The notes: generated by a model not told the origin, from the sequence alone. A stretch of 60,447 nt of DNA, filler included, from an uncultured Myxococcia bacterium (GCA_964617105.1; 6 parts of 6 records of this genome joined end to end with filler, not necessarily neighbours in it); one strand, 5' to 3'. Positions 3,545 to 35,235 are shown, counted from the first letter of the whole stretch. Program-made: numbers and translations.

Positions 3545-3602
3545 CCAACACGCCCCACCAGGAACTGTCTGACCAGGTTGGATAGCGGTGAGAATTTGTT
3601 TG

Positions 3603-4853: not shown

Positions 4854-4863
4854 GGTGGTTGAG

Positions 4864-6489: not shown

Positions 6490-7038
6490 ATGATAGAGTT
6501 AAGATTTCATGGCCGGGGAGGGCAAGGGGCAGTGGTAGCCTCCAAGATTTTTGCCGAGGCACTTTTTTATGAAGATAAATTCGTTCAATCGTTTCCCGCT
6601 TTTGGGGTTGAACGGCGAGGTGCACCCGTTACCGCCTTTACCAGAATAGATGATAAACCCATCAGGTTGAGAACCAATATCTACCAACCTGATCATATCG
6701 TGGTTTTGGATCCAACCCTGATAGATACCACCGATGTAACCGCCGGCCTTAAGGAGGGCGGGATAGTGTTAATCAATATTGACCGGGAGCCCTCTACCTA
6801 TACCAGGTTATCGGGATTCAAGGTGGCAACTGTTGACGCCAACCTGATAGCCACCGAATACCGCCTGGGTTCTCCCGCCTATCCTATTGTCAATACCGCT
6901 ATTTTAGGGGCTCTGTCCAGGGTCACCGAATTGGTGGGAATAGAGTCGGTATGCAAAGCCATCAGTAAAAGTGTTCCCACGAAGCCGGAAGCCAACTCCG
7001 AGGCTGCCCGGAAGGCTTTTAACCAGGTTTTGTATTGA
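6490..7038 (+). CDS. porC: 2-oxoacid:acceptor oxidoreductase gamma subunit
   Basis: [28 protein letters not shown]. Confidence 0.9.
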
Positions 7039-7101
7039 TTTTCAGAATTTACATAAATGGCAACCTAGTATTAGCAAAGTATTAGCAAAATTGGGTGAAA
7101 A

Positions 7102-8910
7102 ATGGATTATAAAAACAAACCGATAATTTTCAACTCCGAACAAGATATGCCCTATCTTCCAGTTTCATCAGGCTCCATGCTCTGGAACAAAACTGGCAGT
7201 TGGCGCTATTTGCGGCCGGTGCATCAAAATTATCTTTCTCCTTGTCAGGCCGGCTGTCCTACCGCCAACAATATCGAATCATGGATCAGGTATATAGAAA
7301 TTGGCGATTATCCACAGGCGTTGAAAATATTGCGCACAGAAAATCCTTTTCCGGGAATATGCGGACGGGTCTGTTTTCATCCCTGTCAGGAGTCTTGCAA
7401 CCGTGGACAATACGATGGTGAAGTCTCTATTAACAATCTGGAGAGATTCCTTTCGGAGCAGGAGCAAGAGAAAGCCGTTACTCCGGATAATTTTTTTTCT
7501 GACACCGGTTTCAAGGTGGGAGTAGTGGGCGGAGGGCCGGCTGGATTGGCCTGCGCCTACCATGCCCGCCGTCTTGGCCACCAGGTGGTGTTGTTTGAAA
7601 CCAATGCCGAGGCCGGTGGTATTTGCCGTTACGGTATCCCATCATACCGGCTGCCCCGATATGTTTTGCAGCGGGAGATCACTATGCTGCGGGAGATGGG
7701 CATTGAACTTAAGGTTAACACCAGAGTGGGCCGTGATATAACCTGGGAGGAATTGGAGCAGCAATTCGATGCCGTGTTTATTGCCACCGGCGTCTGGAAG
7801 AGCCGTAAAATGATGATCGATAACGAAGATGCTCAGGGAGTGATGCCGGGGTTGAAATTTCTCTACCAGGTGGCCAATGGAGAGGTTCCTCCTTTGGGTA
7901 AAAATATTCTGGTAATTGGTGGAGGCAATACCGCGTTGGATACAGCCCGCACCGCTTTGCGGCTGGCGGCTCCCCAGGGTGGAAAAGTATATGTGGTATA
8001 TAGACGCTCCCGGGAAGAGATGCCTGCTTTTGCGGCAGAATTGAAAGAGGCGGACAGGGAGGGTATCGAATTTATTATGCTTACTGCTCCCGAACGGGTG
8101 CTGGTGGAGGATGGCAAAGTTATTGGCCTGGAATGTGCCAAGATGAGGTTGGGCGAACCGGATGACAGTGGCCGCCGACGCCCGGTTAAAGTGGACGGCA
8201 GTGAGCACGTAATGGAGGCGGATAATATTTTTGCCGCCATTGGTGAGCAGTTGGATGAACAGATGATCCCCGATGGCCTGGAACTCCACTGGGGTAAAGC
8301 AGTAGTCGATGACACCGGGCTTACCTCCAGGAAAAAATGGTTTGCCGGCGGTGATATGATCGACCAGCCCCACTCGGTGGTGGATGCTCTGGGCTCTGGT
8401 AAGCGAGCCGCTATTGTGATGGATTGTATGCACCGCGGCCTCGATTTTTCCCAAATCAAAGAGACCATCGGCATAGGTTCAAAGGGCGTTCTTTCCATGC
8501 GCAATTATGTTATGACTTTGCAAGAGGAAACCATTGAGGATGGTAAGGAAGTTTTGCCTTATGAGAAGATAAACCGCTTTTATTTTGAGAGTAGCCAACG
8601 CGGAAAAATGCCCAAATTGACTCTAAAACAGCGTTTGGGAACTGGTGGTGATGATTCCATCGCTGCAACTTCTAAAGAGGTAAATTTGGGGTTAAGCAGG
8701 GACGCTGCCTTGCATGATAGTTTACGCTGTTTTCATTGTGGTCAGTGTACTATGTGTGATACTTGCCTGATATACTGTCCCGAGGTGTCTATAAGGCGCC
8801 AGGTAAGTGAATATGGCTATCACATTGACTTGGATTATTGCAAGGGTTGTGGGCTTTGCGTAAAGGAATGCCCCCGTGGTTGTATCATTATGGAAAAGGA
8901 ATTGAGGTAA
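7102..8910 (+). CDS. GltD/NfnB-like NAD(P)H-FAD Fe-S oxidoreductase fused with the 2-oxoacid oxidoreductase delta subunit
   Basis: N-terminal TGSWRYLRPV, PCQAGCP...CGRVCFHPC..C, GGGPAG and GGGNTA dinucleotide motifs, C-terminal CTMCDTCLIYCP...CKGCGLCVKECP. Confidence 0.85.
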   Translation: MDYKNKPIIFNSEQDMPYLPVSSGSMLWNKTGSWRYLRPVHQNYLSPCQAGCPTANNIESWIRYIEIGDYPQALKILRTENPFPGICGRVCFHPCQESCNRGQYDGEVSINNLERFLSEQEQEKAVTPDNFFSDTGFKVGVVGGGPAGLACAYHARRLGHQVVLFETNAEAGGICRYGIPSYRLPRYVLQREITMLREMGIELKVNTRVGRDITWEELEQQFDAVFIATGVWKSRKMMIDNEDAQGVMPGLKFLYQVANGEVPPLGKNILVIGGGNTALDTARTALRLAAPQGGKVYVVYRRSREEMPAFAAELKEADREGIEFIMLTAPERVLVEDGKVIGLECAKMRLGEPDDSGRRRPVKVDGSEHVMEADNIFAAIGEQLDEQMIPDGLELHWGKAVVDDTGLTSRKKWFAGGDMIDQPHSVVDALGSGKRAAIVMDCMHRGLDFSQIKETIGIGSKGVLSMRNYVMTLQEETIEDGKEVLPYEKINRFYFESSQRGKMPKLTLKQRLGTGGDDSIAATSKEVNLGLSRDAALHDSLRCFHCGQCTMCDTCLIYCPEVSIRRQVSEYGYHIDLDYCKGCGLCVKECPRGCIIMEKELR

Positions 8911-10058: not shown

Positions 10059-10158
10059 NNNNNNNNNNNNNNNNNNNNNNNNNNNNNNNNNNNNNNNNNN
10101 NNTTAATTAATTAANNNNNNNNNNNNNNNNNNNNNNNNNNNNNNNNNNNNNNNNNNNN
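10059..10158. other. Artificial contig linker (N-TTAATTAATTAA-N)
   Basis: 100-nt N spacer containing a six-frame stop 12-mer; repeated identically at four other places. Confidence 0.98.
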
Positions 10159-11472
10159 TTACCTCTATATACCGATAAAATCTTATACATTATCATCGAT
10201 GAATACGACTTATTCGCCAATGAACTTTTGGCATTTAAGCCCAATAAATTTAAGCAACATTTTGGCTCTACCGGTTTTGTCCGTAAATTTTATGAACAGA
10301 TAAAAGAGGGAACTAAAAAAGGTGTTGTTGACCGTATTTTCATCACCGGGGTCACTCCCATTGCGCTGGATAGCCTGTCGAGTGGATTCAATGTTACCAC
10401 TAATCTTTCTAACTCGATAAAACTTAACCGAATGATGGGATTTACCTTGATTGAAGTCGGCCGAATTGTAAATGAAATTTCCCAGGAATGTTCAAAAATA
10501 GATAAAAACCAATTATTGTCAGATTTGGTCAATTTTTATGATGGCTACAAATTCAATAGAGAAGCCAAAGAAAGTATATTTAACCCTGATATGATTCTTT
10601 ATTTTGTCAATCACCTGCTACGTGAAGAAATGTGCAAATACCCCGACAACCTGATCGATAAAAACATTATCTCCGATTACACAAAAATCCAACAGATGTT
10701 CAAAATCGGGGATTATGAGAAAAATCTGGGAAAACTGGATGAATTGCTAAAAGAGAAGCAATTGATTGTTAAACTTACCGATGTGAATTTATTGGATAAA
10801 GACAGGGTAAAAAAATTTACAACCAGTGATTTTGTTAGTCTGCTTTTTTATTTAGGGATAATTACCATAAAAGAACCTTATGGTGCTAATCTCAAATTAA
10901 AAATTCCCAATTATTGCATCGAGCAACTATATCTTGAATTTTTTATCCACATAATTGAGGAAAGAACAAACGCCAAGATTGATACTACCAAACTAGACAA
11001 TTGTATCTTTGAAATTTCTCAAAATGGAAATATCAAACCCCTGGTAAAGATGGTTGAGAGTTTTCTGCATAGTCTCTCCTTCCGTGATTTTCAGAAATTT
11101 GACGAAAAATATGTCAAACTGGCAATTTTCGCTTATCTTTCCCTGACCAATTTGTATATCACCAAGACCGAGTATGAAGTCGAGGATGGCTATATCGACC
11201 TGGCACTTTTAGAGCGCTCACCTTATGATGTAAATTATCAGTTTGGCTTTGAGTTGAAATATATAAAAATGGTAGATGACAAGCAGGATAAAAAGAAAAT
11301 AAGGGAGACTCTCTACAATAAAGCATTGGAACAGCTGAAAAAATACCGCCAATCGGATGAGTTTTCAAAAATGAAAAACCTGAAAACCTACATCCTGATT
11401 TTCGTTGGTGATAAATGTGAAGTCTGTGAGGAGGTGACTACATCTAGCAAGTCGCTCATGTTATCCTGTTAG
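10159..11472 (+). CDS. AAA-ATPase-like / PD-(D/E)XK nuclease (DUF1703-type) protein, 5'-truncated by the contig edge
   Basis: Frame open from the contig start (…IIIDEYD Walker B); IFITGVTP, YDGYKF, FNP; C-terminal EYEVEDGYIDL...FELKY. Confidence 0.88.
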   Translation, partial: LPLYTDKILYIIIDEYDLFANELLAFKPNKFKQHFGSTGFVRKFYEQIKEGTKKGVVDRIFITGVTPIALDSLSSGFNVTTNLSNSIKLNRMMGFTLIEVGRIVNEISQECSKIDKNQLLSDLVNFYDGYKFNREAKESIFNPDMILYFVNHLLREEMCKYPDNLIDKNIISDYTKIQQMFKIGDYEKNLGKLDELLKEKQLIVKLTDVNLLDKDRVKKFTTSDFVSLLFYLGIITIKEPYGANLKLKIPNYCIEQLYLEFFIHIIEERTNAKIDTTKLDNCIFEISQNGNIKPLVKMVESFLHSLSFRDFQKFDEKYVKLAIFAYLSLTNLYITKTEYEVEDGYIDLALLERSPYDVNYQFGFELKYIKMVDDKQDKKKIRETLYNKALEQLKKYRQSDEFSKMKNLKTYILIFVGDKCEVCEEVTTSSKSLMLSC

Positions 11473-11572
11473 AATTTATCTCATGCCAATATTTCTTGTC
11501 CACGGTTTTGTGAAACATGGTAAAATGCGTTGAAAGTTATGGAATAACTGGTTAGAAGCCAAAGGATAAAAA

Positions 11573-12508
11573 ATGCCCATATTTGAAATAACAGAAGACA
11601 AACTCTTTCCAGTAGAACAAAAGAATTTCTCACGTGAAAAGCAATTACAATCTCTGATTGAAAACAATCTTGAGGAGGTTTTCAATTGTCGCTTTGTGGC
11701 AACGGAATTTTCAACAGGTGCTCAACATGCAGGAAGAATTGATAGTCTCGCACTATCGGAAGAAAATAATCCTGCTATTATTGAATACAAAATAGTAGAA
11801 TCATCGGAACTAATAAATCAAAGCCTATTCTATCTACATTGGATTCAAGATCATAAAGGAAATTTTGAAATTGCAGTTCAAAAAACTCTTGGAAACGTGG
11901 CTAAGGTTGACTGGACAGATGTTCGAGTAATCTGTATAGCTCCAAATTACAAAAAATATGATCTTCATGCTGTCCAGGTCATGGGTGCAAACATTGAATT
12001 ATGGAAGTACCGCCTATTTACAAACAATTCCTTATATATGGAAGAAGTACTACACAATACAAAATCAACAGCAATAATTTCTCAATCATCTAATAAAAAC
12101 CCCGTTATGGTTGAAGCAGGCAAAAAAGCCGCGCAGGTGAGAGCAACAGCCACCTACACACTTGAAGAACATCTTAAAGGTAAGTCAAAAGAAATCCAAG
12201 AACTCATGCACGAAATTCGTGAATTTGTTACGGGATTAGATTCAGCAATAGAAGAGGTGCCCAAAAAGTGTTATATAGCTTATAAATCATCTAAAAATAT
12301 CGTATGTATGGAAGCAAAAAGCAAAAATATTAAGATATTCGTTAAACTAAAGCCTTCTGAGGTTCTTGAGCCACCAAAGAGTTATCGAGATGTAAGTGAA
12401 ATTGGTCATTCAGGTACTGGCGAAGTGGAATTCACTATCTCAACACCAGAAGAATTTGAAGAAACAAAGAAGTACATTGAACTGGCATACAACAAGATCG
12501 GTGGCTAA
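11573..12508 (+). CDS. NucS-like (DUF91) endonuclease domain plus DUF5655 domain protein
   Basis: EKQLQ...GRIDSLAL.E...AIIEYK...QSLFY nuclease motif; C-terminal EEVPKKCYIAYK...RDVSEIGHSGTG. Confidence 0.8.
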   Translation: MPIFEITEDKLFPVEQKNFSREKQLQSLIENNLEEVFNCRFVATEFSTGAQHAGRIDSLALSEENNPAIIEYKIVESSELINQSLFYLHWIQDHKGNFEIAVQKTLGNVAKVDWTDVRVICIAPNYKKYDLHAVQVMGANIELWKYRLFTNNSLYMEEVLHNTKSTAIISQSSNKNPVMVEAGKKAAQVRATATYTLEEHLKGKSKEIQELMHEIREFVTGLDSAIEEVPKKCYIAYKSSKNIVCMEAKSKNIKIFVKLKPSEVLEPPKSYRDVSEIGHSGTGEVEFTISTPEEFEETKKYIELAYNKIGG

Positions 12509-12520
12509 TACAATAAAGGT

Positions 12521-13366
12521 CTACAATATGTACTTGTCTATTATGTAATTGTCTATTATTGATGTAAAATCACTTTTATGCTCATGATAGCGATCCAGTT
12601 TTCCCCGCCCCTGGGTGTCGCCTACATAAACCCAATTGGATGCCTTGTAACTGGCCCCATCAAACCGTTGCCGCTCCACAAAGGTCTCGAACAGAACCGG
12701 ACGGTAATTATACCTGGCCTCCCAGTCATCAGGCAGCCTCCTTGAAACCATGGATAAGATACGCGAGGCCAAATTTTTGGATTTCACCCAGGGCAGTATC
12801 AAAAAGCGGGCATTGTTCACCACCAGATGAAGGTTATCCTTACGGCAATCTGTGCTCCAGCCGATATAATGGTCCCGGGGGGCTGTCTTCCAGGCCGCGG
12901 CACCAAAACCCAATGCCGCCAATATCTCCTCTTTATGCTTGACAAAATACCGCAACTGGGCACCTGGCAACGGTTTGTATCCCAGGTAATGATAGCGGTC
13001 TATCAGTTCATTCCACAGTTTGGATGAAAACTTGTCTGTAACCAATTCTATATCCAGGGCAAACGCCCCTGCCGGCTTGATTATATCCGGCTTTGCTTCG
13101 CCAAACAGCGTCCGTTGAACAGGGACTTTGGCATTACATATATATTTTCGTTTTGGGGGTGGCAGTTTTATCAATCCATCTTTTTCCATGCGCAGCAATG
13201 CCACACGGCAACTCATGTCCTTCAAGGTTCCATTGGGCTTTAGCCAGTCGAAAGCCGTGCAGACCTGTCTTGAAATTTCATTGCGGCCCTTTTGGGAGTA
13301 TTTCACGATGATCTGCTTGATCTGCTCGAGTTCGGATTGTGAAAAATCCCGCCCGGAATAACGCAT
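12521..13366 (-). pseudogene. DUF4338 (DruA-like, often IS-associated) protein with the conserved C-terminus apparently replaced
   Basis: RYHYLGY...GAQLRY, RDHYIGW, NNARFLILPWV, LFETFVE, YKASNW..G.TQGRGK; then AT-rich unrelated-looking tail after HEHK. Confidence 0.7.
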
Positions 13367-13470
13367 GCCTGGTTCACCCTGTTTCCATAATGATCTGATT
13401 TCCCGATGTTAAATGCATTATACCAAAACGAAAATTGCGTGTTCAGCAGAGGCTTTCGACATGTGGCAAA

Positions 13471-13560
13471 TTTCAACCTCGAGGCAACCCGGGTGCGCTG
13501 GTTCTCCGCTGCAGGCTTCGCTCCGCCCCAGGGCACCCGGGTTGTCTATCAGGCCTGAAA
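13471..13560. repeat. REP-like GC-rich hairpin
   Basis: AGGCAACCCGGGTGCGCTGG (13482-13501) pairs with CCAGGGCACCCGGGTTGTCT (13528-13547), 18/20; outer TTTCA/TGAAA. Confidence 0.7.
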
Positions 13561-13580
13561 ACATACTGACCTTTAATTTG

Positions 13581-13806
13581 CTAAGCCGCTTTTACAAGTG
13601 AACGCATCATCTCCTCTCTGCCAGCCTTTATATGGCCGACTGCCATAGATAACATCACTATCAAGGCCAAACCGACTTTGAATTTCATCTTGGCCATTCC
13701 CCTTATGGTATGTTGCTCAAAACCAAAACTAACATCCAACCGGCTGTTCACCCGCTCTACCGCACTCCGGTAATTATACTTGGCAGCCCAGGCATAACTG
13801 CTCCTG
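13581..13806 (-). mobile_element. C-terminal remnant of a DDE transposase (IS4/IS5/IS1182-like)
   Basis: YNYRSAVERVNSRLD YREK-type motif and IRGMAKMK...LALIVML; no N-terminal part. Confidence 0.7.
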
Positions 13807-14633
13807 GCTGCCAATTCCGATCTGCGAAAGGATGAACAAAACGATGAAATTCTCCGGTTTGTTGATTTCTGGAAAGAACGGACAGGCCGCCTTCCAGAAG
13901 AACTCATTTTTGATTCAAAACTTACGACCTATGAAAATCTGAATAATCTCAACCAAATGAAAATTCAATTTATTACTCTGCGAAGACGTTCCAAAAAAAT
14001 GCTTCAAGCGATAAACCAAAAACCCGAATCTGCCTGGAGACGGATTCAACTTGAAGGTGTTTCAAGGATCTACCGGACCCCGAAAATTCTGGATGAAAAA
14101 ATAGCCCTCAAAGATTATTCAGGTCCTTTACGACAATTGACAATTAAAGATTTGGGGCACGAAGAACCGACCATTTTAATTACAAATCAACTTAAACGTT
14201 CCCCTCGCAAACTCATTACACGGTATGCCAAGAGAATGCTCATCGAAAATGGCATCGCCGATGGCATTGATTTTTTCCACATGGATTCTCTGTCCTCCGC
14301 AGTGGCTATGAAAGTAAACTGTGATCTTCAACTTACGCTCATGGCTAGCAACCTCTATAAGGTCTTTGGTGCTAAAATTGGTAACGGCTATACAACAGCC
14401 AAATCAAGACATAGTTTCAGAGATTTCATCGATGCATCGGCAACGATAAAAATAACGAAAAATAACATCATTGTTCGTTTTCAAAAACGGGCTCACAACC
14501 CTTTATTGCTGTCCGCCGGGTTTGAAGAAAGTGATGTAAAAATCCCCTGGCTCGGTGGCAATAAAAAATTGCAACTTATATTTGGCTAAATCCGCCATGG
14601 TGTTAACTTAATAAACTAACATGGGAATCCAGG
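13807..14633 (+). mobile_element. 3' half of a DDE transposase (IS1380-like) with a candidate right terminal repeat
   Basis: Frame open from 13807 (ANSDLRKDEQNDEILRF...LIFDSKLTTY) to stop 14589; YAKRMLIENGI motif; GGGAATCCAGG at 14623-14633 resembles IS1380-type CCT.GATTC termini. Confidence 0.65.
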
Positions 14634-14762
14634 CTGGTCATTGTATTTGTTTTACCTGTCTGTCCAATCAATTTTTTAAAATATTTTTGTTGGCTGGTTC
14701 AGCAGAACATGCTAACATATTGTAAGGATAGAAAGATTCTGTACCATTGTAAAGAGTTAATC

Positions 14763-16520
14763 ATGAAAATCCCTTACGGTGAATCGAATTTTGAAAAGAT
14801 AGTGACCAACAATTACTATTATATCGATAGAACCCATTACATCGAGATGTTGGAGAATTTAAACGAGAATTATCTTGTATTCCTCCGCCCTCGACGGTTT
14901 GGCAAGTCGTTGTTTTGTTCGATGCTGAGTTACTATTATGATGTTCAATACAAGGACCGGTTTGAGGAATTATTCGGCAATTTTTATATTGGGAAAAAGC
15001 CGACTGATAGGAAAAATAATTATCTTGTACTGAAATTAAATTTTAGTGGGATAAGTACAGATTCAAATGAGAGGCTTTTTAACAGTTTTAGAGAAAAAAT
15101 ACGCGACGCTATAGAAAATTGTCTTAAGAAGTATGATTATACTGGTGACATAATTGCTAATTTAAAATCACCAACTTATGAACCAGCAGATATTATAAGG
15201 AAATTTCTTAATTTTATTAATTCTGAAGTTGTGTATCAACTTTATATCCTTATCGATGAATATGATCTTTTCGCAAATGAACTATTGGCTTTTCAACCCA
15301 ATGAATTTCAAAAACACTTTAGTTCTACCGGTTTTATCAGAAAATTCTATGAACAGATAAAAGAAGGAACAGAGAATGCTGTAGTTGACAAGATTTTTAT
15401 TACTGGCGTAACCCCCATTGCCCTAGATAGCCTCTCAAGTGGGTTCAATATTACCGAAAACCTTTCAACTGCCATTGAATTTAACGAAATGATGGGATTT
15501 AAAGAGGATGAGGTAAAAAAAATTGTATTAGAGATTAAAAAGGAATGTCCAAAAACCGATTCAGATAAAATGTTTAATGATCTAGTTAGGTTCTATGATG
15601 GTTACAAGTTCAACCATGAAGCAGAGGCAAGGGTTTTTAATCCCGAAATGATCCTATATTTTGTCAGCCAATACACCAGGAGTGGCAAGTGTAAATACCC
15701 CGATAACATAGCTGGCAAAAACATGATCTCCGATTACACCAAAATCCAGCAGATGTTCAAAGTTGGGGATTATGAAAAGAATCTAAAAATTATTGACGAA
15801 CTTTTAAATAAAGGCGAAGTTAAATCCTCACTCATAGACAACGATTTAATTACTGAAAATACTAATTGGGAATTTAATGGCGAGGAAAAATTCATCAGTT
15901 TGATTTTTTTCCTGGGCATTATTAGTATAGAAAGGTCCGATGGTGAGGATATTGTATTTAAGATACCCAATTATGTTATAGAAAAATTATATCTAAATTT
16001 TTTTATAAGTATTATTCAGGAAAAAACTGACATTGACATTAATGTCAGGGCACTCAAGACTGCAATAAGCGCCATGGCCCATAAGGGAGAAGTGGTTTTA
16101 TTTGTCAGTACTGTGGAGAAACTTCTTACGCATCTTTCCAATCGTGACTACATCAAGTTTGACGAGAAATATGTAAAGTTGCTAATATTTTCATATCTGT
16201 CATTGACTCGGATGTATGTAACCAAGAGTGAATATGAGGTTGAGGATGGTTATATTGACCTGCTGATGTTTAGGCGTCCTCCCTATAATGCAAAATACCA
16301 GTTTGCGTTTGAGGTGAAATACCTGAAAAAGAAGGAGATGAAAAAAGACCTGTCCGCCTTAGCCTTGGCGAAGGCGGATGCATTGGAGCAGATACAGAAA
16401 TATCGTAAGTCTGATGAATTTTCCACAATGGAAAACCTAAAAACCTATATATTGATTTTCATTGGGGATAAATGTGAGGTTTGTGAAAAGGTGAATGATG
16501 AAATCAACCCTGTTAAATAA
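14763..16520 (+). CDS. AAA-ATPase-like / PD-(D/E)XK nuclease (DUF1703-type) protein, full length
   Basis: MKIPYGESNF, YYIDRT, RPRRFGKS Walker A, LIDEYD, GYIDL...FEVKY. Confidence 0.92.
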   Translation: MKIPYGESNFEKIVTNNYYYIDRTHYIEMLENLNENYLVFLRPRRFGKSLFCSMLSYYYDVQYKDRFEELFGNFYIGKKPTDRKNNYLVLKLNFSGISTDSNERLFNSFREKIRDAIENCLKKYDYTGDIIANLKSPTYEPADIIRKFLNFINSEVVYQLYILIDEYDLFANELLAFQPNEFQKHFSSTGFIRKFYEQIKEGTENAVVDKIFITGVTPIALDSLSSGFNITENLSTAIEFNEMMGFKEDEVKKIVLEIKKECPKTDSDKMFNDLVRFYDGYKFNHEAEARVFNPEMILYFVSQYTRSGKCKYPDNIAGKNMISDYTKIQQMFKVGDYEKNLKIIDELLNKGEVKSSLIDNDLITENTNWEFNGEEKFISLIFFLGIISIERSDGEDIVFKIPNYVIEKLYLNFFISIIQEKTDIDINVRALKTAISAMAHKGEVVLFVSTVEKLLTHLSNRDYIKFDEKYVKLLIFSYLSLTRMYVTKSEYEVEDGYIDLLMFRRPPYNAKYQFAFEVKYLKKKEMKKDLSALALAKADALEQIQKYRKSDEFSTMENLKTYILIFIGDKCEVCEKVNDEINPVK

Positions 16521-16718
16521 GAAAAATTACCAATCTCAACCTGGAGTCCACTTTGCAGAGAATTTCTCAGAACATCCATCAACCCATGATAATCACTACG
16601 CTATCTCGCAATTCACAAGTTCCCACCAGCCATCAACCACCCCAAAACCGGTTCGAGCACAGGCGTGCAGCGGGGAGCCACTCTAAAAAGGGCAGGGTAA
16701 CGCCTCCCAACTGGTTTA

Positions 16719-16763
16719 CAAGAGAGCCCGGAGAGCCTTGAATAGGCGCTTCGGGCTCTCTTG
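16719..16763. terminator. Strong hairpin, possible terminator
   Basis: CAAGAGAGCCCG...CGGGCTCTCTTG perfect 12-bp outer stem plus imperfect inner stem, followed by CGTTTTG. Confidence 0.45.
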
Positions 16764-17312
16764 CGTTTTGGGGGAAAGATCGGAGACGGGGGTGGCGCTG
16801 TTTGGCGGCCGCGGCGAAATACTCGTGATAACGGGTGGTTAGCGGTGGGTTGTCAAGGTTGGCCACTGCCCATCTGGTTCGATTTCACTGAAATGTCTGC
16901 CTCAATTCTGCCACAATTTCACTGGGTATTCCTCTTTTTGGCCAGTCTTAGCCCGGTTTCTGTCAGTCTCAACCGGTCTCAGAAATAGAGACCAAAAACA
17001 ATGTCATCTCACATTAACCACAAAAATCACGTAAATTATACCAGGCATTTTGAGGCTCTCCGAAGAGTCTCTGTTTCTCTGGGTTAGGCTTGCCTAAAGT
17101 GGTTAACAGGGCTGTTAACCGGTTTGAAAATGGGATTTTAGGGGGTGGAGTGGTTAACAGGGGATGGCTGTTAACCATCGGGGAACATGTTGATATTGTT
17201 GGGCAATTTGGATGGTGTTTTTGAGGTGTTTCGGTGGGCGTAAATGGGGGAATTGGGTGTGGTGTTATTCAGCAGGGGCGTCTGTGTGTGTCACCATAAC
17301 GACATAGGTGAG

Positions 17313-17625
17313 TCAACGCGGGGAGCCCCCTCCTCCGGAGGAGGGGGCTGAACAATTCACATTATGGCCTCCGATTCTTTTACTTGCTTCCTCTGCCCGG
17401 TAACTCTTTACTTCACCAGGTATTTCAAGAATTGTGGCGTGGTGTACAAGTCTATCTATAGCGCTCTATAGGCGCTCCCCAATTAATCTGGAGGGGACTG
17501 AATAGGTGTTGAAATTTACCCTGATTGTGCTCCATTCACTAACTCGCTTCTCTTCTTCTCGATACAATGGCAATTTGGTCACACGTAAATCCTTCATCAC
17601 AGCCACCTCTTCCTGTAACAGTGGC
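17313..17625 (-). mobile_element. IS21-family remnant: istA fragment joined to the istB C-terminus
   Basis: Minus-strand translation LLQEEVAVMKDL...RVSEWSTIRVNFNTYSVPSRLIGERL* then, same frame, SAIDRLVHHATILEIPGEVKSYR; not in the ORF track. Confidence 0.8.
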
Positions 17626-17840
17626 CGGAAATTTAGGCTTTTAGAAAGTGCTTTGCGGAAATGGGAAAACTAACTACTTGAGAAAGCAGAAGAGACTCAC
17701 GTTTGCTATGGTTGTGTTGCCCAATGGGGCTGGTGCCATTGCCGTAATTTTTTATAAAATGCAAAAAAAAACGATGGCTTTGTGGGATAGAAAGAGCATT
17801 GGGGGGCAAGTATCAAACAAATAAAACAATTTCATTTGAT

Positions 17841-18719
17841 CTAAGGTTCCCATGATGGACTAACGTATAGAGAAACGGACATTCTCACTGAAGTATAGTT
17901 CTTGGGTCTTTTCCCATCTGATACATCTACAATTACTGTTAGAAAATTATCAAAACCTCTTTTTACATCGTCAAATCTGTTGCCAAAGAAATTTTCATCC
18001 AAATTAACAATAAATGTGTCTCCGGTACTAATTTTATGCTTTTTCCCTGGCTCTTCATCTCCATCGAATTTACCCAAGAACTCTTCCTCTTCATAGATCC
18101 ACCATTTGTAACTGACGATATCATTAGTGTCTTTGTCAATCGCTTTTACTTTGAAAATTAGTTCATCGCCTATTTTTACAATATATCTTTCGTCTTTCTT
18201 ATATGGGATATATTTTTTGGAGGGAGATGTTCCATCTGAATAACCCCAATCAAAAAAAACTATCTCAGGTTCGTTATTTACCAGTTCATCAGGAGTGAGT
18301 GTGTTAGGATAGTTATCCTTCTTTTCTTTATAATGTTTTACTGATAGGTTTAAGTAGTTCAAAAGATCTTTCTCGCCTTTAAAACGATAACCTGGGTGTT
18401 GGTATCGCTCCAGTTTTTTCTCTAGTGATTCTTTTTCTTTAGAATCTGGCTTTTCTTCTTTTGGAGCAGTGCCACTATCTTGACTATTTTGTTCAACTTT
18501 GGATTTTTTAGAGCGGATAAATAAGTTGGTAACCTTTTTCCCTGTCCTAGGCTTTTGTTTTTTGCCAATTGCACTTTCTAATTTCTGCACTCTCTTATTT
18601 GTTGAGACTGTCGGGTCTTTTTTAAGCTCATTATTGGTTGGGTGGTCTTTGGTTTTATAGACGGCAACTATGGAGAATATTATTATGAAAGAGATTAGTA
18701 TAAGAGATTTATTGGCCAT
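17841..18719 (-). CDS. Hypothetical membrane-anchored or secreted protein (Lys-rich linker, possible Ig-like C-terminal domain)
   Basis: N-terminal hydrophobic segment; AT-rich; KVKAIDKD...VSYKWW pattern. Confidence 0.6.
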   Translation of the reverse strand: MANKSLILISFIIIFSIVAVYKTKDHPTNNELKKDPTVSTNKRVQKLESAIGKKQKPRTGKKVTNLFIRSKKSKVEQNSQDSGTAPKEEKPDSKEKESLEKKLERYQHPGYRFKGEKDLLNYLNLSVKHYKEKKDNYPNTLTPDELVNNEPEIVFFDWGYSDGTSPSKKYIPYKKDERYIVKIGDELIFKVKAIDKDTNDIVSYKWWIYEEEEFLGKFDGDEEPGKKHKISTGDTFIVNLDENFFGNRFDDVKRGFDNFLTVIVDVSDGKRPKNYTSVRMSVSLYVSPSWEP

Positions 18720-18759
18720 ATTAAATCTGAAGCCCCATCTATCATTATAAAAGAAGCTT

Positions 18760-18977
18760 GCTTATTTATCCCCCCGACCGGCTTCGAGACTCAAAAGAGC
18801 CCTACCACAAGCCGGGGAGAAGGTTGTTCTTTGCCCAATTCCAGCCGGTCAAAATGACCCGGAACGGGGGCGGGACAGGAGAGCTGGTCAATGCCTTGGT
18901 GCACGGAGGCGGAGTCCGTAAACGCCGCCTGACTGGCTATTTTGCCGCCTATTTGGCGGTTGCAATGAATTCAGAGT
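18760..18977 (-). ncRNA. GC-rich structured segment 3' of the DGR template repeat (candidate DGR-RNA spacer)
   Basis: Several hairpins on the minus strand: CCGCC-aaata-GGCGG, AGGCGGcgtttacggactCCGCCT, CCGGGTCAttttGACCGG, CCGGCTT...AAGCCGG. Confidence 0.5.
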
Positions 18978-19091
18978 ACGAAAGCCAAGGTTGTTGTTGC
19001 GGTTGCCAGGCGAGTTGTTGTTGCGATTCGCCGAGCGGCAGTTCTTGGCGTTATTGTTCCAACTGCCCCCGCGTTTAACCCGGTTCGAGCC
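18978..19091 (-). repeat. DGR template repeat (TR) for an FGE-sulfatase/CLec-type target
   Basis: Conceptual translation GSNRVKRGGSWNNNAKNCRSANRNNNSPGNRNNNLGFR; 13 of 38 codons are AAC/AAT and only three other codons (AAA, AAG, AGT) contain any A. Confidence 0.93.
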
Positions 19092-19094
19092 ATT

Positions 19095-19595
19095 TTATTC
19101 TCCTGCCCACATATGTGCGTCAGCCAAAATAGACCGGCGCAGCAGGGCTTTTATTGTTCTGTGGTCAATTGAATCGAAAAATTTGTGGATATCGTTTTTT
19201 AGAAAGCAGCGGTATTTCTGGCAAAAATATTGTGCTCTGGCCAGGGCGCGATGGGTCCCTTTTTCTTTGCGGCAGGCATAACTGTCATGGATGGAGAATT
19301 TCTCGAAAATCGGCTCCACAAGGTTGCACACGCTGTGGTGAACCACTCTGTCTCTAAAGTCGGCCGCCGCTATCAACCGGGTCTTTGGATCGTTCACGAT
19401 GAACATCCTGTACGGCTGCGGTCTGTAACTCCCCGCTAAAATTTCCCGTTGCAGTTGCAGGACATTAGGCTCAACTCGAAACAGGAAGGAGGTGGCCTGT
19501 TTTGTGCAGAGTTTTCCCTTTGCCGCCTTATAAGCGCATTTCACTAGTTGGTTGAAATCTACTGTTTTTTCAAAAAGATTTCCGTATCGCTTCAT
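19095..19595 (-). pseudogene. DGR reverse transcriptase, N-terminal 166 aa only
   Basis: MKRYGNLF, YRPQPYRMFIVNDPKTRLI..ADFRDRVVHH, SYACRKEKGTHRA, LKNDIHKFFDSIDH; stops before the GxPxG..SQ and YxDD motifs; ATG overlaps the avd stop (ATGA). Confidence 0.9.
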
Positions 19596-19936
19596 GGTTC
19601 TAATTGCTGTTGCTGCCATCCACCCACTTGTTTTCCCGCTTCGTCGAGCAGACGGTTAAGATGGTCATAACCCTTGTGATCCAGATATTTTCTCTCATGG
19701 CAAAGTCCCGAGAGGACCCGCAGTTTTTCGATGTTCAGGTTGACAGTTTTTAAAAGTGAATACTTGCCACCAGAATAACAGACTTCCACTATCTTTTCCA
19801 AAACATCCAGGGCCAGGTTGTCTAATCGGTTTGAAAAAGTAAAGCGCACCTTTTTGGGAAACTTTTCTGTTTTTTGCAGCAAATATTTTATTACTTTTAT
19901 CCAGCATATATAAAGAGGCAGTTGTTCATGGCTCAT
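19592..19936 (-). CDS. avd: DGR accessory variability determinant (Avd, four-helix bundle)
   Basis: 114 aa, basic; EKFPKKVRFTFSNRL, LNIEKLRVL..LC, EAGKQVGGW; directly upstream of the RT. Confidence 0.9.
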   Translation of the reverse strand: MSHEQLPLYICWIKVIKYLLQKTEKFPKKVRFTFSNRLDNLALDVLEKIVEVCYSGGKYSLLKTVNLNIEKLRVLSGLCHERKYLDHKGYDHLNRLLDEAGKQVGGWQQQQLEP

Positions 19937-20190
19937 TATTGCGACTCCGGCTGTGGCTGCTCATAACCATTCTCTGACATCGGCCTGGGCAGGCTCTCAG
20001 AATCTTTAAAATCTCCTGATATCTGAGCATTGGCTCTAACTATATTTAAAATGGCCTCTCCAAACTGCCTTGCTTTGTTTTCTCCGATTCCTTCGATTTT
20101 CTGCAAGGCAGACAATGTCTGGGGTTTTTCCCTGGCAATAAGGGCCATTTGCTGGTTTTTGCAAATAACATACAGGGGCACACCATCCTG
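19936..20190 (-). CDS. HRDC-domain protein (DGR accessory), 5'-truncated by the contig edge
   Basis: GVPLYVICKNQQMALIAREKPQTLSALQKIEGIGENKARQFGEAIL; stop overlaps the avd start (TAATG). Confidence 0.85.
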   Translation of the reverse strand, partial: QDGVPLYVICKNQQMALIAREKPQTLSALQKIEGIGENKARQFGEAILNIVRANAQISGDFKDSESLPRPMSENGYEQPQPESQ

Positions 20191-20290
20191 NNNNNNNNNN
20201 NNNNNNNNNNNNNNNNNNNNNNNNNNNNNNNNNNTTAATTAATTAANNNNNNNNNNNNNNNNNNNNNNNNNNNNNNNNNNNNNNNNNNNN

Positions 20291-21097
20291 TAGTGCTGAT
20301 ATAAATGTGATTGCGCTGATCGGAGAGCGGGGCCGTGAGGTGCTGGAGTTCGTGGAAAGAGATCTGGGGCCCGAGGGGATGGCCAGATCGGTGGTGGTGG
20401 TGGCTACCAGCGACAGTTCTCCGGTGGTAAGGATGAGAGGGGCTTTTTTAGCCACCTGTATGGCCGAATATTTTCGACTGCAGGGTAAAGATGTGCTGCT
20501 GATGATGGACTCCCTTACCCGTTTTGCTATGGCCCAGCGAGAGATAGGTCTCTCAATAGGTGAACCGCCAACCACCAAGGGCTATACCCCTTCGGTGTTT
20601 GCCTTGCTGCCTAAATTTTTGGAACGATGCGGTACCCTCAATCTTCAAAACGGCACTGTTGCCAGTATTACCGGTCTATATACTGTACTGGTTGACGCCG
20701 ATGATATGAATGAGCCAATTGCCGATGCTGCCCGCTCAATCCTGGATGGTCATATTGTACTTTCCAGAGACTTAGCCCATCATAACCATTACCCGGCTNN
20801 NNNNNNNNNNNNNNNNNNNNNNNNNNNNNNNNNNNNNNNNNNNNNNNNNNNNNNATGACCGTGGTGGCCGGAGAGGATCAAAAAAAATTGGCCGGCCTGA
20901 CCAGGGAAACTATGGCGAGTTATAGTCAAGCAGAAGATTTGATCAATGTGGGTGCCTACGTAAAGGGCAGTAATCCAAAAATTGACTTTTCTATTGAAAA
21001 AATAGATGCTATAAATCAATTTTTACGCCAGGGTATCTTTGAAAATGTTGGGATGGAACAATCTTTACAAATATTGGAACACATTTTTGCTGAATAG
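20291..21097 (+). CDS. fliI: Flagellar export ATPase, partial, with an internal sequencing gap at 20799-20854
   Basis: [66 protein letters not shown]. Confidence 0.88.
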
Positions 21098-21818: not shown

Positions 21819-24800
21819 TCACATTGCGAAACCACCTAGGTCAATACAATAACCACCGGCACATTCAAATCCGGGTTGGCATTCAGAACTAGAGGCACAG
21901 CCAGTATAACTGCCGGTTATACATTGACCACCACCTTGACCACCGCTATTTATGCAAATCTGGCCGGTGGAGCAATCGGCATTACTGGTGCAACCGGATG
22001 AGGTTCCAGTGACACAATCGCCATCCTGGCAGACCTGGCCAGTGGAGCAATCACTATCATCCATGCAAGAGCCCCCTTCATCTATACATTCGCCGCCCTG
22101 GCAGATTTGACCTTCACCGCAATCATCATCTGTATTACATTCTGGCGTCGGCCCCTCGCTCATCATACACTCTCCTTCTGAGCAAATTTGACCTTCACCG
22201 CAATCTGAATCACTGGTGCATCCGGCAGTTACCGTATCAAGGGCGCAAAGTCCTGTATTCTCATTACATATCTCACCTTCTTCGCAGTCAGCGTTACTAG
22301 CACAGGGTTCGATACAGACAGAATTGCCGCCAGCGGGCAGATGACAGATTGTGGTATCAGTACAAGTGTATTCCGGCATACCACCAGATATCAGGCACGA
22401 CTCCCCGGTTTGTTGGTGACCTTCAAGAATAGGTTGCCAACAAACACCCCAGTCATGAATAGGGTATCCTGAACAGGTCTGGTTATTTTTACAAGAATAG
22501 TTTGCGGTTCTGGAACAGATTTTAGCACATTTACCAGAGGCGCATATATAGCCATCCTTGCAGCGTTGATTGGCTGGCAGCAATGCTCCTCCCTGTTCAG
22601 TTGAACAGGTTGCATTCTGACCTAAAAGAGCATCGGTTGGAAATGCACAAAAGCCCTCATTTTGAGAACCGCCAAATAGACAGATTTTATTATTTAAACA
22701 ACCACTGTAAGGAAATGGGGCTTTGCCAGGATGGCATAACTCCCCACAAAGACCCCAGGTAGATACCGTTTCATTAGACAAATATGGATGGATGCAGGAA
22801 AACCCTTGGCCGCATTGATTGCCGGTTTGAGCCGGGTCACAGAGAGAGTGGCATTCACCCAAATAGCAGAAAGAGCCGGCAGCACATGCCTTGGCATCAT
22901 TGGTCGGATCCGGACAAGCCTGCCCTGGTAAGATAGCCAAAGAATCTTCGACTGAAGGAGCATAAACGCACATATTGGCACTACTCATCTTACCACTGGT
23001 GGGGTAACAGGTCCCGTTAGAGCCACAACTGCCTGGGTTCTTTAAATCACAAATTCTTGAGCATACTCCATATGACGAAGTTGGTTGCCCAGATGCATCC
23101 ACCGCCCAGTTGCAAGTGTTATACTCGGGATCACTACAGCCTCCGGTCTGTCCGGCCTGACAATATTTAGTGCAAATTCCATTAGAGCAAAACAAGCCCG
23201 GCTGGCAATCACCATCTTTGCCCAAATTATTTGCATCACAGGCCTGGCCAATCGATTTCAGTTCCGATAATGGTTTACTCAAATCGTTACAAAGAGAAAC
23301 ATTATTATAACTGGTGGGATAGCAGGTGGCGTGGCTGGCTCCCTTGTCAGCACAATCTTGATTAAAAAGATCACACTGCGCCTGGTTGATACAAATGCCG
23401 TAGTTGGGAGTTTGCAAATTATCGGGCCAGCAGGTCTGGTTAGTGGCACAGGAGTTTAGATTAGTTTTATTACAGGTTTTAAAGCATTGGTGCTCACCTG
23501 CTTTTGCATTAGGCAGACAAATTGATCCAGCCTGGCAATCGGAACTAACCACACTTTGAGCGCCCCACAAGTCTAAACTCTGGGCAACACCGCACTTTTC
23601 GCCTGGCAGTTTACTGCCCAAAGCATCCAGGCATTTTCCTCCAAAAGTGGTTGGCCAACAGGTTTGGTCAGCCTGGCAATTATCGCTGGCAATCTCCTCT
23701 GTATTGGGATCACAAACCATAATTTGTTCATTGCTGCTTTTTACCAGTCTAAAGCCACCCTTTACCGGGCCATAGCCATAATTATCCTGGGCGTCTGGGT
23801 TTACCGGGTGACGAAAAGCAAAGCGGCACTGATGGGACCCACCGATAACCGAACCCCCTCTCAAGATTCGTTCTGTTCCGGTGGTGGGACCAAGGGGATC
23901 GGTAAGTTGCAAATCATTATATGGTCCGTATAGATCCCATACCCACTCGGAAACATTGCCGATCATATCGTATAAGAGGAGATTATTGGCCTTTTTGCCG
24001 CCAACTTTTTGTAGTGAACTGTAGCCATCGCACCAGGCAACTTGGGAAATATTATTGTAGTCTAACTCTGCGGCTTCTCCCGCCCGGGCAGCATATTCCC
24101 ACTCCGCTTCGGTGGGAAGACGATAACCCTGGCAATCTAGACCTTTAAAAGTTACCTGAGCACATTTCATCCCCTCTCCCGGCTTACCAATACAGTCAGA
24201 TAAAGTGTAGCACTCCTCCAACCCATAATATTTAGACTTTATGTTGGCAAAGGCCAAAGCCTCGTAAAAAGTTACCTTAACCGGGCAATTTTTTTCGATA
24301 CACAATTCGCTTTCGTCTCCTTCAAGGTAGTAACCTGGACCATTTTCACCGTCATCATCTTCTTCTTCACATTCTACACACGGTGGCCCATCGACGTTAC
24401 CGTCCGAGTGGCCATCTCCTTCGCTACCCTGGTTACCTTCCTCACTGTAGTGCCCAAAAGCCCAACTCCAAAGTCTATTGGTTACTTCATATCTGGAGGT
24501 AAAAAAACTGCGGGTGATTAAAACTTGATGTTGCGGTTTTTCAATCTCTGGTTGAGAGACAGATTCGAAAGATGAACCCATATTGAACATTCCGGCAGGA
24601 ATTTTGGCATAAGTAGAGCCCCAGCCGGTTAAAGCCGGTGCATAACCAATATAGTGATTGGTTTTAATATCACCAACTTGCAGTTCGGTTCCCCAACAGT
24701 AGAGCCCTTTTTCCGGCATACTGATCCCGCAGGTAAAATTGCTGCCTGCCGAGATGGACTGCCAGGTTAATTCACCAATCTTCTGGGGTTGAGGCCGGTG

Positions 24801-27800
24801 TTCCTGGGTGTTATCACCTAACTGTCCGGCGCCATTTTCGCCCCAGCACCAGAGAGAGTTATCCTCCTGGATGCCGCAACTATGAAATTCACCCAAACTG
24901 ATAGCCAACCATTTTTTATCATCTAACAATAGGGTGGGTATATCTTTATCAACTTCAACACCAAAACCAATTTGCCCATAACCGCCACTGCCCCAGCAGA
25001 AAAGTTGGCCAGATTCTTTAATAGCGCAACTGTGATTATCTCCCACATCCAAATCTTTATAGGGGCCAGCCCCCACTTTTTTGGGAACTTTAGTCTCGAT
25101 TGTGGCTGCCAAGCCTAGCGCCCCAGCACTGCTGTAGCCCCAGCACCAGAGCGAGCCATCATTTTGGATGCCGCAGGTGTAATATGAGCCGGGAGCCACT
25201 TTTTTCCATTTGGCGGTGCCAACCTGGGCCGGCTTATCCCGAAGACGATAGTCATTCAGGCCCAATTGCCCCATATCGTTATTACCCCAGCACCAAAGAG
25301 TCTGATCCGCTTTAATGGCGCAAGTGATGCCACCGCCTGCCTCTACCGACAGCCAGCCGGTTTGTGCCAGAGGAGTAAAGATGCTCTGGTCACTCACCTG
25401 CCCAACTCCCAATTGTCCATAACTGTTGTTACCAGTACAATAGAGTGAACCATCATTGTTTAGGATACAGGAGTGGTAAAAGCCGGCGCCAATATTTATC
25501 GCCGGCTCTTTGGCAGTAGTGCTAAGCCAATAATACCTATCGGTGTTGCCCATCCCCAGTTGTCCATAGTCATTTCCGCCCATACACCACCATTTACCAT
25601 CCATTGAATTGAGGGCACAAACATGGTTATGTCCGGCAGAAACAGATTTCCAGGATGGACCGACACATTCTTGCCATTTTTTGTTTTCATAAAATTGCAA
25701 ATTTCGTGGTTCATCAGGACAGGCGCGAACCGAAGTTTTACAGTGTCCATCTTGTTGAATAAATGGGTAAAAAGAATTACTTTCCAGGCAAGAAACCAAT
25801 TGGCACTCAGACCATTGGTCATTACTCCAGGATTGCTTCCCAACACCATAGATAATGTGGCATTCCCTGCTATTACTTACACAATGGTTATTTTCGACAT
25901 GATAATCAGCAATACAGGTTTCTATTTCACATTCGCTCCAGGCATTAGCCTGGCTATCCCAAGTTTTTTGCCCGGTCCCAAACTCCATATCACAACTTTG
26001 CTCGTTGTCTTCACAGCGTTTGCTAACCTGCCCAATGTGTTGAGTTTCTGAGCAGAGTTGACATTTGCTCCAGGAAGAGGCTGCATCATCCCAGGTCTGA
26101 AAACCTTTATTCTTGTAGCAGATGCGGACAGATGGCTGGCAACGGCCAAATTCCAGATGAAATCCGCGGTTACAGAATTGAACTTTGCACTGGCCATAAT
26201 GCTCTTTTCCACTGTCCCATAAAGCGATTCCCTGGCCATTTTCAATAGAGCAAAAATTAGTATCGCTAACACAAGATTGTTGCACTCCACTCTGGTTGGC
26301 TTCCAGGTGAAATCCCTGGTTGCACCGTTCGGTAATACAGTCGGACCAGGTTGATGTTTGGCTGTCCCAAATTCGTTTGCCCACACCATTTGCCACCTGA
26401 CAAATGGTGTGATTGTTTACACAACTCATTTGAGATTGTGTGACCTCCACATGCTGATCATCATCACAGGTAATACAGGGATCCCAGTCATTTTCATTCC
26501 AGGTTTGATAGCCCTGGCCAGAATGGCAGAGTTTAAGGTCAGATTGGCATTGATCACTGGAAACATGAAAATATTGGTCACAACTCTCTATCTGGCAGGG
26601 ACCATAGGCTTCGTTCTTATCACTCCAAACTTTTTTGCCTTTACCATTAATGATTGGGCAAGATTGGATATTGCTAACACAACCTTTGTCCTCTTCGTGA
26701 TAACCAGGGTCACAAATATTTTCACAGTCATCACCGATTTTGTTGCCATTTTTATCTTCCTGATTAGCATTGGCTATGGTGGGACAATTATCCAAAGAGA
26801 AACGAATTCCGTCTCCATCTTCATCAATATCAGCAGGCACTCCAAAAAACACCGGACTTGGAGCAGATAGATTATTGACCTGGTCAAAGGCTCTGGCGGT
26901 CAGGCGGGTGAGTTTTCCAGGTTTAATCCAGGGGGCTTGCAAAAACAGTTCAAACACCTGAACACCGGAGGGATCTGTAGATAGAACGCCTGAAGACAAA
27001 AGAGTTTTTACTCTGTCCTCAAAAGGTGATTCACTGCCGCCCTGGAATAGAAATCCCGCAATATCAGAAGTGCCGCCACTAAAAAACAGGGCCACTTTGA
27101 GACCCCGTTCACCTGGCGTTACTCGGGTTTTTGGATCCCAAATCATCTTGGGTGCGGTTTGATCCAAGGTTATGGTCAAGAAAAAAGGTGCAGAAAAGCG
27201 GCCGGAACGATCTATCACCCGGACAAAAAATAGTTTGCTGCCGTCGGTCCCGGGGCTTGGAAGGTTATAGGCAAATTGGGAATCATCAATCCAGGGTTGA
27301 GAGGTTGAATCTACAAAAGACATATCCTTGGCTATTTGATAAGAGGCAATGCCGCTGCCAATCTTATCGTTGGCCTTGATCTCAATCATAACCTTTGGGC
27401 TGGTGGTGCTGGTGGTAGAGGGGGAGCCATCAGCCAGTTTGCCGTGAACTAAAGCCTGAACAATTACCGGATCTTTTAAATCAACAACAGTTTTTACCCC
27501 CACCGATTCTATCAGTTTATCTGTGCCATCAAAAAAATTTATGGTAAGCGTTTTTAGCCCTTCTGTATTGGAGAGGGTAACCTCTTTACGGGTTACGGCT
27601 GCTAATTGCAGCGGCGTATTGTCCAGCAAATCGCCCCGAATAGTTAGTTTTTGGGCGCCAGGAGGCAAATTGATAAGCAAGGTAACCTGGTTGGACTGCA
27701 CATAACGCCCCTCTTCGATCACCACTTTGGCAATAGGCACATAAGTTGGGTCAAATTCAATTTTAGCAGAGGTTACAGCATCGTTGCCGGCAAAATCAAT

Positions 27801-30290: not shown

Positions 30291-30390
30291 NNNNNNNNNN
30301 NNNNNNNNNNNNNNNNNNNNNNNNNNNNNNNNNNTTAATTAATTAANNNNNNNNNNNNNNNNNNNNNNNNNNNNNNNNNNNNNNNNNNNN

Positions 30391-35163: not shown

Positions 35164-35235
35164 ACAATGCGCCTGGCAATCCAAACTAACAAAACTGGAG
35201 ATTAACGCCGGCTAAATTATCAGGAGGTTTAAATA

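Follow-up and report, generated by a model that had tools for sequence, protein, structure and literature searches.

Layout of the cassette at the end of a contig

The window, i.e. the whole stretch of DNA that was analysed (60,447 nt), carries a cassette of a diversity-generating retroelement (DGR), in which the genes HRDC, avd and RT (reverse transcriptase) and a template repeat (TR) all lie on the minus strand, head to tail. The features are as follows, in window coordinates.

19936-20190, minus strand: 3' part of the HRDC accessory gene (84 codons plus stop), its 5' end cut by the end of contig 2
19592-19936, minus strand: avd, complete, 114 aa (Pfam bAvd, E 7e-15)
19095-19595, minus strand: RT remnant, 166 codons plus stop, N-terminal region kept and catalytic half missing
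19095-19112, minus strand: putative deletion junction, the last alignable Trp (W) followed by AGE-stop; breakpoint approximate, placed from alignment A1 (below)
~19095 to ~18967 (core 18978-19091), minus strand: TR, recognised by homology to the TRs of relatives
18907-18930, minus strand: predicted stem-loop of 9 bp with two bulged bases and a UACG tetraloop, from the fold of the window sequence
18770-18820, minus strand: predicted long terminal hairpin with GGUAG (18802-18806) in an internal loop, from the fold

The initial annotation, made from the sequence, had described three translationally coupled minus-strand genes with TAATG and ATGA overlaps, which proved exact by ORF coordinates and by Pfam and NCBIfam matches. 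The HRDC stop TAA and the avd ATG have one base in common (TAATG), and the avd TGA overlaps the RT ATG at 19595 (ATGA). The avd product scored 82.7 bits against the NCBIfam equivalog DivGenRetAVD (cut-off 80) and was 41-57% identical to the Avd of L002-L006, L009 and L016, which are loci of the comparison set described below. The HRDC ORF matched Pfam HRDC (E 2.5e-14) at profile positions 19-68 of 68; the match starts only at position 19, so that the contig end truncates not just the gene but also the domain. When read from the first start codon, the HRDC ORFs of relatives were 149-331 aa long in 10 of the 11 loci listed, the exception being L021 (53 aa), and the two longest pass through the variable repeat (VR) in another frame. 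An N-terminal stretch common to these ORFs is missing from the HRDC of the window. Of the accessory proteins by which a DGR is recognised (Avd and/or HRDC), both were found, in agreement with the annotation of HRDC and Avd as accessories of a DGR.

It was found that the window consists of six pieces with five linkers of the form N44-TTAATTAATTAA-N44 between them, which were also detected as repeat family D1. The pieces measure 10,058, 10,032, 10,000, 9,976, 9,947 and 9,934 nt and are contigs of a draft assembly ordered by length. The cassette occupies the right-hand end of piece 2 (10159-20190). This piece is a whole contig, since the database entry of the RT remnant gives 10,032 nt, the same length, for the longest contig. 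The linker Ns begin at 20191, and contig 2 ends at 20190, inside the HRDC gene. Sequence past 20190 is positionally unrelated to the cassette. Since it belongs to other contigs joined by an artificial linker, adjacency arguments across linkers are invalid; a window can be unrelated contigs strung together. This had escaped the initial annotation, so its statements that the genes are followed by the repeat and that the window holds no VR carry less weight. Beyond 20190 there are a flagellar-type region, by our own reading, and a 2813-aa RCC1/FGE-sulfatase protein.

The other genes of contig 2 encode two paralogous PD-(D/E)XK/AAA-ATPase-like proteins, one DUF5655 protein and one DruA homologue. 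Fragments of DDE transposases and a C-terminal fragment of a Mu transposase are also present, and no phage structural genes were found on the contig. The transposase fragments mark a decaying neighbourhood and were counted in favour of decay of the cassette. A 292-aa protein encoded downstream (17841-18719) was considered as a member of the cassette and set aside, as it matched no Pfam or NCBIfam family and had no homologue beside the DGRs of relatives.

The template repeat, its relatives and the expected target

The cassette was compared with the 80 closest related loci from public genomes (best RT identity 53%), 52 of which carry a TR/VR pair whose mismatches fall at TR adenines in at least 75% of cases. 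The order HRDC-avd-RT was shared by 10 of the 80 loci; six of these have TR/VR pairs, with the VR upstream of HRDC in five. The five (L002, L004, L005, L006 and L020) are MAGs labelled uncultured bacterium, Deltaproteobacteria, Nitrospirae, Acidobacteria and Desulfobulbaceae, and the sixth (L009), with its VRs downstream instead, is the MAG of a Thermoplasmata archaeon. These syntenic relatives resemble the window in the arrangement HRDC-avd-RT-TR, in a TR that overlaps or abuts the RT stop, in TR identity (71-86%) and in having the same 3' RNA hairpins. They differ from it in that their RTs are full length (332-360 aa) and only 46-53% identical to that of the window, and in that cognate VRs are present, with 14-25 mismatches specific to A.

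The TR core (18978-19091, minus strand) comprises 114 nt or 38 codons, with 13 AAY codons (11 AAC and 2 AAT), 22 codons free of A, and 32 adenines in all; these counts agreed on recount with those given earlier. The adenines fall at codon positions 1, 2 and 3 in the ratio 16/15/1, and the core is A-rich with AAY codons, as is required of a DGR template. Homology to the TRs of relatives indicated that the TR probably extends slightly beyond the core, from ~19095 to ~18967. The segment had been called a repeat, but it is present as a single copy within the window, and its identity as a TR comes from this homology. It was 68-86% identical to seven validated TRs versus 56-66% to their VRs, and the peptide that it encodes matched Pfam FGE-sulfatase at positions 212-254 of 255 (E 9e-7, 29.2 bits, cut-off 23.3). 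The targets of the relatives were FGE-sulfatase-domain proteins in seven of seven cases. Judged by these comparisons, the A-rich segment is indeed a TR, for a predicted FGE-sulfatase/CLec-type target, as had been proposed.

Similarity scores, together with the A-biased TR/VR pairs of relatives, place the RT in the DGR clade and not with group II intron or retron RTs, as had been expected. The best match of the RT remnant among solved structures was the Bordetella RT (bRT, 8ub7_A), aligned over residues 3-159 of 328 (E 1e-30, 109 bits); the highest-scoring group II intron RT reached 45 bits, and matches to the RTs of group II introns and retrons had E 1e-10 or weaker. In NCBIfam, no DGR-RT family was obtained for the remnant or for its full-length relative P0001, which matched group II intron, retron and DRT models only, all below threshold. 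The remnant scored 71 bits against TIGR04416 (group II intron RT/maturase, cut-off 300) and 21 bits against retron_St85_RT (cut-off 235), and Rfam yielded no intron or retron RNA.

That the best NCBIfam model is a group II intron RT/maturase, and that the A-rich segment occurs only once in the window, would fit another explanation, in which the segment is not a template but the 3' end of a (pseudo)target or chance low-complexity sequence, and the RT a fragment of a retron or group II intron. The segment, however, has A at 120 of the 131 sites at which the TRs of relatives have A and their VRs differ, it is 10-20 percentage points closer to TRs than to VRs, and it is placed where the TRs of relatives are. 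With bRT as by far the best structural match and no intron or retron RNA from Rfam, this explanation is extremely improbable and can be considered effectively refuted.

It had been reported that no VR is visible in the window, and three search methods confirmed this, each returning only the TR itself or chance similarity. An ungapped scan that tolerated non-A mismatches up to 25% recovered the TR alone, as did a search with an A-to-N motif allowing up to 3 mismatches (one match). Gapped blastn with word size 7 gave as the best other match 31 nt at 74% identity (35156-35186, E 0.16), which was rejected as a chance match. A 43-nt A-to-N motif had no matches in 596 Gb of genomes, TR included, a set that does not contain the source genome. 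As a target, the FGE-sulfatase domain inside the 2813-aa protein (21819-30260) was rejected: it lies on a different contig, shares only 36% protein identity with the TR peptide and has no match at the DNA level.

The relatives point to where the VR should be found. Measured from the position aligned with 20190, the VR ends 471 nt upstream in L002, 439 nt in L004, 358 nt in L005, 530 nt in L006 and 394 nt in L020. With the VR 358-530 nt upstream in five syntenic relatives, that of the window is expected just off the contig, most likely 0.36-0.53 kb past 20190; the earlier suggestion that targets lie beyond the contig edge is in line with this. In all seven relatives examined, the VR encodes the very C-terminus of a protein with an FGE-sulfatase domain; the stop codon follows the VR end by 4-10 nt or, in L006, lies 4 nt inside the VR. 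Past activity of the window cassette is suggested by homology to these loci.

The architecture is one that has been catalogued already. HRDC genes were reported in 14 of 372 DGRs, about half of which also have avd (Wu et al., Nucleic Acids Res 2018, PMC5758913); in that survey the HRDC-containing DGRs are Architecture C, and avd-RT-TR is Architecture B2. The window shares with these the combination of HRDC and avd, the order avd-RT-TR on one strand, and a TR coding for the C-terminal strand region of the FGE-sulfatase/CLec fold. The curated set of the survey is described as putatively functional elements, which differs from the window with its 166-aa RT remnant and no visible VR or target.

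The cassette was also compared with the DGR of Bordetella phage BPP-1 (mtd-avd-TR-Sp-brt; AY029185.2). The N-terminal half of its RT was 40% identical to that of the window by tblastn, and it likewise has an Avd homologue, an AAY-rich TR and, according to the preprint on its RNA (10.1101/2023.10.23.563531), a bulged tetraloop stem-loop shortly after the TR. In BPP-1, the TR lies between avd and RT, whereas in the window it comes after the RT and overlaps its end. The window differs further in its extra HRDC gene, in a target family that is FGE-sulfatase and not the Mtd tail fibre, in being chromosomal with no phage genes on the contig, and in its broken RT.

Conserved RNA hairpins downstream of the template repeat

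Between the TR and the next gene there are 230 nt of non-coding DNA whose form is conserved. The fold energy of the window sequence was unexceptional (z -1.33), so the case for an RNA structure is built on covariation and not on fold energy. For the stem-loop at 18907-18930, compensatory changes were observed at 11 of the 12 predicted pairs in 10 aligned sequences. In the preprint cited above (bioRxiv 10.1101/2023.10.23.563531), 207 of 278 DGRs that contain Avd were predicted to carry 'Avd-binding stem-loops' just 3' of the TR, commonly with 9 bp, flipped-out bases and tetraloops, among which UNCG is frequent. The predicted stem-loop of the window has the form of these elements, which makes it a candidate Avd-binding site by analogy.

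The second hairpin, at 18770-18820, was found to recur in its design, with GGUAG, in 18 further loci, which comprise MAGs and isolates labelled as several bacterial groups and one archaeon, and it sits 110-180 nt after the TR. Its arms are only 32% identical across loci. Plain MAFFT alignment followed by RNAalifold gave 0 pairs, as the 3' arms were misaligned; the pairing of each hairpin's own arms was for this reason compared with that of arms swapped between loci. Own arms formed a mean of 10.5 consecutive pairs versus 5.9 for swapped arms, indicating that base pairing is maintained while the sequence changes. A search of Rfam with E up to 1 found no family for either hairpin, only three chance microRNA matches.

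In BPP-1, the priming region is reported to involve pairing of Sp 53-56 with TR 118-121 (10.1101/2023.10.23.563531). By analogy, GGUA was examined for pairing with one constant site close to the 3' end of the TR. A match of at least 4 bp was present near the TR 3' end in 12 of the 19 loci, but at inconsistent positions, and the idea was dropped. The 100 nt analysed in the same preprint do not reach the GGUAG hairpin, and DGR RNAs of the RT-TR architecture may have in it a functional element that is as yet undescribed. Studies of how DGR cDNA synthesis is primed and stopped may gain modestly from the two hairpins, which together form a conserved 3' RNA domain of the HRDC/avd-RT-TR lineage.

The truncated RT and its junction with the template repeat

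The RT remnant retains FRDRVVHH and the aspartate motif DxxKFFDSIDH, and it matched Pfam RVT_1 (E 3e-7) at only profile positions 8-87 of 205. A database search limited to longer proteins gave 3,121 relatives; among the 120 listed, nearly all are 323-345 aa long, and the closest (P0001) is 66% identical. The remnant aligned to residues 1-163 of relatives of 335-341 aa. In alignment A1, which comprises the remnant and 21 full-length relatives, homology extends from M1 to ~163-166, the last alignable residue being a Trp common to seven relatives. The motifs PIGNLTSQ and RYMDD are present in all 21 relatives, in columns that are nearly invariant (at least 90%) across A1, and both are absent from the remnant, as is the thumb. 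It therefore lacks all that identifies a complete RT ([I/L/V]GxxxSQ of motif 4, YxDD of motif 5 and the thumb). When five full-length relatives were compared with the window by tblastn, residues 1-152 to 1-163 matched 19595-19104; the C-terminal half was found nowhere else in the 60-kb window (nothing else at E<0.1, other matches E>1). About 170 codons (~0.5 kb) of the RT are missing. The picture of a clean, complete cassette does not hold, as the RT is without everything after residue ~166, YMDD included.

The 3' end of the RT gene was then compared with those of relatives. The stop codon of the remnant (19095-19097) abuts the TR, which starts at ~19095. A TR that overlaps or abuts the RT stop was found in 28 of the 52 loci with TR/VR pairs (80 loci in all); in L005, for example, the RT ends with ...APTG-stop within the start of the TR. 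The remnant ends with ...MWAGE-stop, resembling its closest relative P0001 (...LRAGE-stop). With the same RT-stop/TR layout in relatives and a P0001-like ending, the native 3' end of the RT gene appears to be kept. This suggests an in-frame internal deletion that spared the last RT codons, although the +1 frame offers a competing likeness: at the junction it reads GRRIKWLEPG-stop, which resembles P0002 and P0022 (...GQGH[E/K]WLEPG), a likeness that is in part forced by the conserved TR start.

We favour a recent internal deletion of the RT in an otherwise intact chromosomal DGR, to which we assign a probability of about 0.7. The ancestral locus would have had the layout target(VR)-HRDC-avd-RT-TR on the chromosome. 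In intact relatives, the RT, the TR and the structured 3' RNA are on one transcript; RT-Avd copies the TR to cDNA with misincorporation opposite adenines, and the cDNA takes the place of the VR, which encodes the C-terminal end of a protein with the FGE-sulfatase/C-type-lectin fold; the gene of this protein lies immediately upstream of HRDC. An internal deletion of ~0.5 kb would have removed RT residues ~167 to ~335, with the nucleotide-selecting motif IGNLTSQ, YMDD and the thumb, and joined the first 163-166 residues to the last few codons, right before the TR. The undamaged state of avd, of the TR (all AAY codons) and of the 3' RNA hairpins makes the loss look recent. With the contig ending inside HRDC, neither the target gene nor the VR can be seen.

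As assembled, the cassette would be predicted to be unable to make cDNA or to mutate its target by itself. It had been proposed that the host diversifies, or once diversified, ligand-binding domains; the latter fits the locus as assembled, and present diversification does not. In the assembled sequence the polymerase is broken, and to call the locus a clean DGR would overstate how far the organism is capable of targeted hypermutation.

The flawless avd, TR and 3' RNA might also mean that the cassette is intact in the organism, and that the missing 0.5 kb is due to an error of assembly or to the assembly of a minority variant with the deletion. Contig 2, of only 10,032 nt, breaks off 0.4 kb before the place expected for the VR, and TR/VR repeats and VR heterogeneity commonly break assemblies at such places. 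A misjoin between TR and VR, however, would exchange the flanks of the repeats and not fuse the middle of the RT to its native 3' end, and the junction retains the native RT-end/TR arrangement of relatives. Truncation of DGR RTs is frequent in other genomes too, also where the assembly is from long reads (L016, for example). The cluster of the remnant (P0121) has two member sequences on two contigs, which are perhaps not independent. We consider an artefact of this kind unlikely.

The same undamaged parts would fit equally well a cassette in use with an RT supplied from elsewhere, i.e. a working non-autonomous cassette whose TR is copied in trans by a second, intact DGR RT of the genome. The avd gene is complete, and the rest of HRDC, the 166 codons of the RT, the TR adenines and both hairpins are without further damage. 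A second RT was not found in the 60 kb available, and the RNA of Bordetella is reported to envelop its own RT-Avd with many specific contacts (10.1101/2023.10.23.563531), so that an RT acting in trans would have to be closely related. A recent deletion is the simpler account of the undamaged parts, and action in trans is rather improbable. The corresponding notion of a 'satellite' DGR, in which the cassette's own RT is dead and its TR RNA, Avd and HRDC are served by a related RT in trans, is as doubtful; if it were true, one polymerase would diversify targets from several templates.

Decayed RTs were also observed among the relatives, which is consistent with the favoured reading of an internal deletion. 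In L016, L041, L066 and L074, homology to the RT is lost after ~155-178 residues. The sequence passes into unrelated DNA in L041 and L074, is interrupted by a stop codon in L066, and runs in L016 into unrelated sequence that is IS-like by eye. A programmed truncation at one recurrent site was rejected, as the causes differ among the four; any pattern of recurrent truncation is in addition weakened by the search for relatives, which selected for retained RT N-termini. Four relatives with differently decayed RTs indicate that RT loss from DGRs is commonplace, and the locus in the window is one more case of DGR cassette decay.

A conserved hairpin downstream of the template repeat

It was found that the template repeat (TR) of the window is followed on the minus strand by a long hairpin, which carries GGUAG/GGUAA in an internal loop and then a small inner hairpin. 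The same element was observed in related DGR loci from public genomes (L numbers, each with its own coordinates).

Hairpin positions
18770-18820 (-), window
8280-8349, L002
6036-6105, L004
2878-2947, L020
8298-8367, L027
14 more loci

About 110-180 nt separate the TR from this hairpin, whose form is kept, with covarying arms, in DGRs from many phyla. A search of Rfam returned no family for it. A preprint on DGR RNA elements (bioRxiv 10.1101/2023.10.23.563531) analyses the first 100 nt after the TR, and the GGUAG/GGUAA hairpin falls beyond that stretch.

The HRDC-avd-RT-TR cassette as in the window was also present in a MAG with an archaeal label.

L009 (Thermoplasmata archaeon by label)
3475-5139, 7059-7185 and 11436-11497, cassette and variable repeats (VRs)

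Its two VRs are both downstream, in contrast to a single upstream VR.

Truncated reverse transcriptases and a decaying neighbourhood

Besides the window, four relatives have lost all of the RT beyond its first 155-178 residues.

RT reduced to its N-terminal part
7001-7513, L016
1047-1565, L041
82-603, L066
7001-7507, L074

The L066 RT was ended by a stop codon, and those of L041 and L074 continue into unrelated DNA; that of L016 also runs into unrelated sequence, which appeared IS-like by eye.

The surroundings of the window DGR are a decaying mobile-element neighbourhood.

Other genes on the contig of the cassette
10228-11472 (+) and 14709-16520 (+), paralogous pair, PDDEXK_9 in both, AAA-ATPase_like additionally in the second
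12521-13366 (-), DruA (Druantia) homologue (E 2e-47)
11573-12508 (+), adjoining DUF5655 protein
13581-14589 and 16520-17840, fragments of DDE transposase and a C-terminal piece of a Mu transposase

The paralogues have segments in common, with an identity of 77-79%, and these are always offset by 5057 nt. The Mu-transposase fragment spans 46 aa (17466-17606), in an ORF-poor stretch of 1.3 kb.

Contig 3 and the joins of the window

One protein on contig 3 was considered as a target of the window TR.

21819-30260 (-), protein of 2813 aa that combines Ig-like domains and RCC1 repeats with an internal FGE-sulfatase domain (residues 1886-2173) and DUF7107/Dickkopf-like repeats rich in Cys

It was rejected, because its DNA contained no match to the TR.

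The six contigs, whose lengths fall from 10,058 to 9,934 nt, are separated by linkers, and neighbourhood across these is artificial.

N44-TTAATTAATTAA-N44 linkers
10059-10158
20191-20290
30291-30390
40367-40466
50414-50513

A run of 56 N on contig 3 (20799-20854) is without the linker motif and is presumably a masked stretch. It breaks an ORF (20307-21097) that, judged by eye only, looks like a secretion or flagellar-type ATPase.
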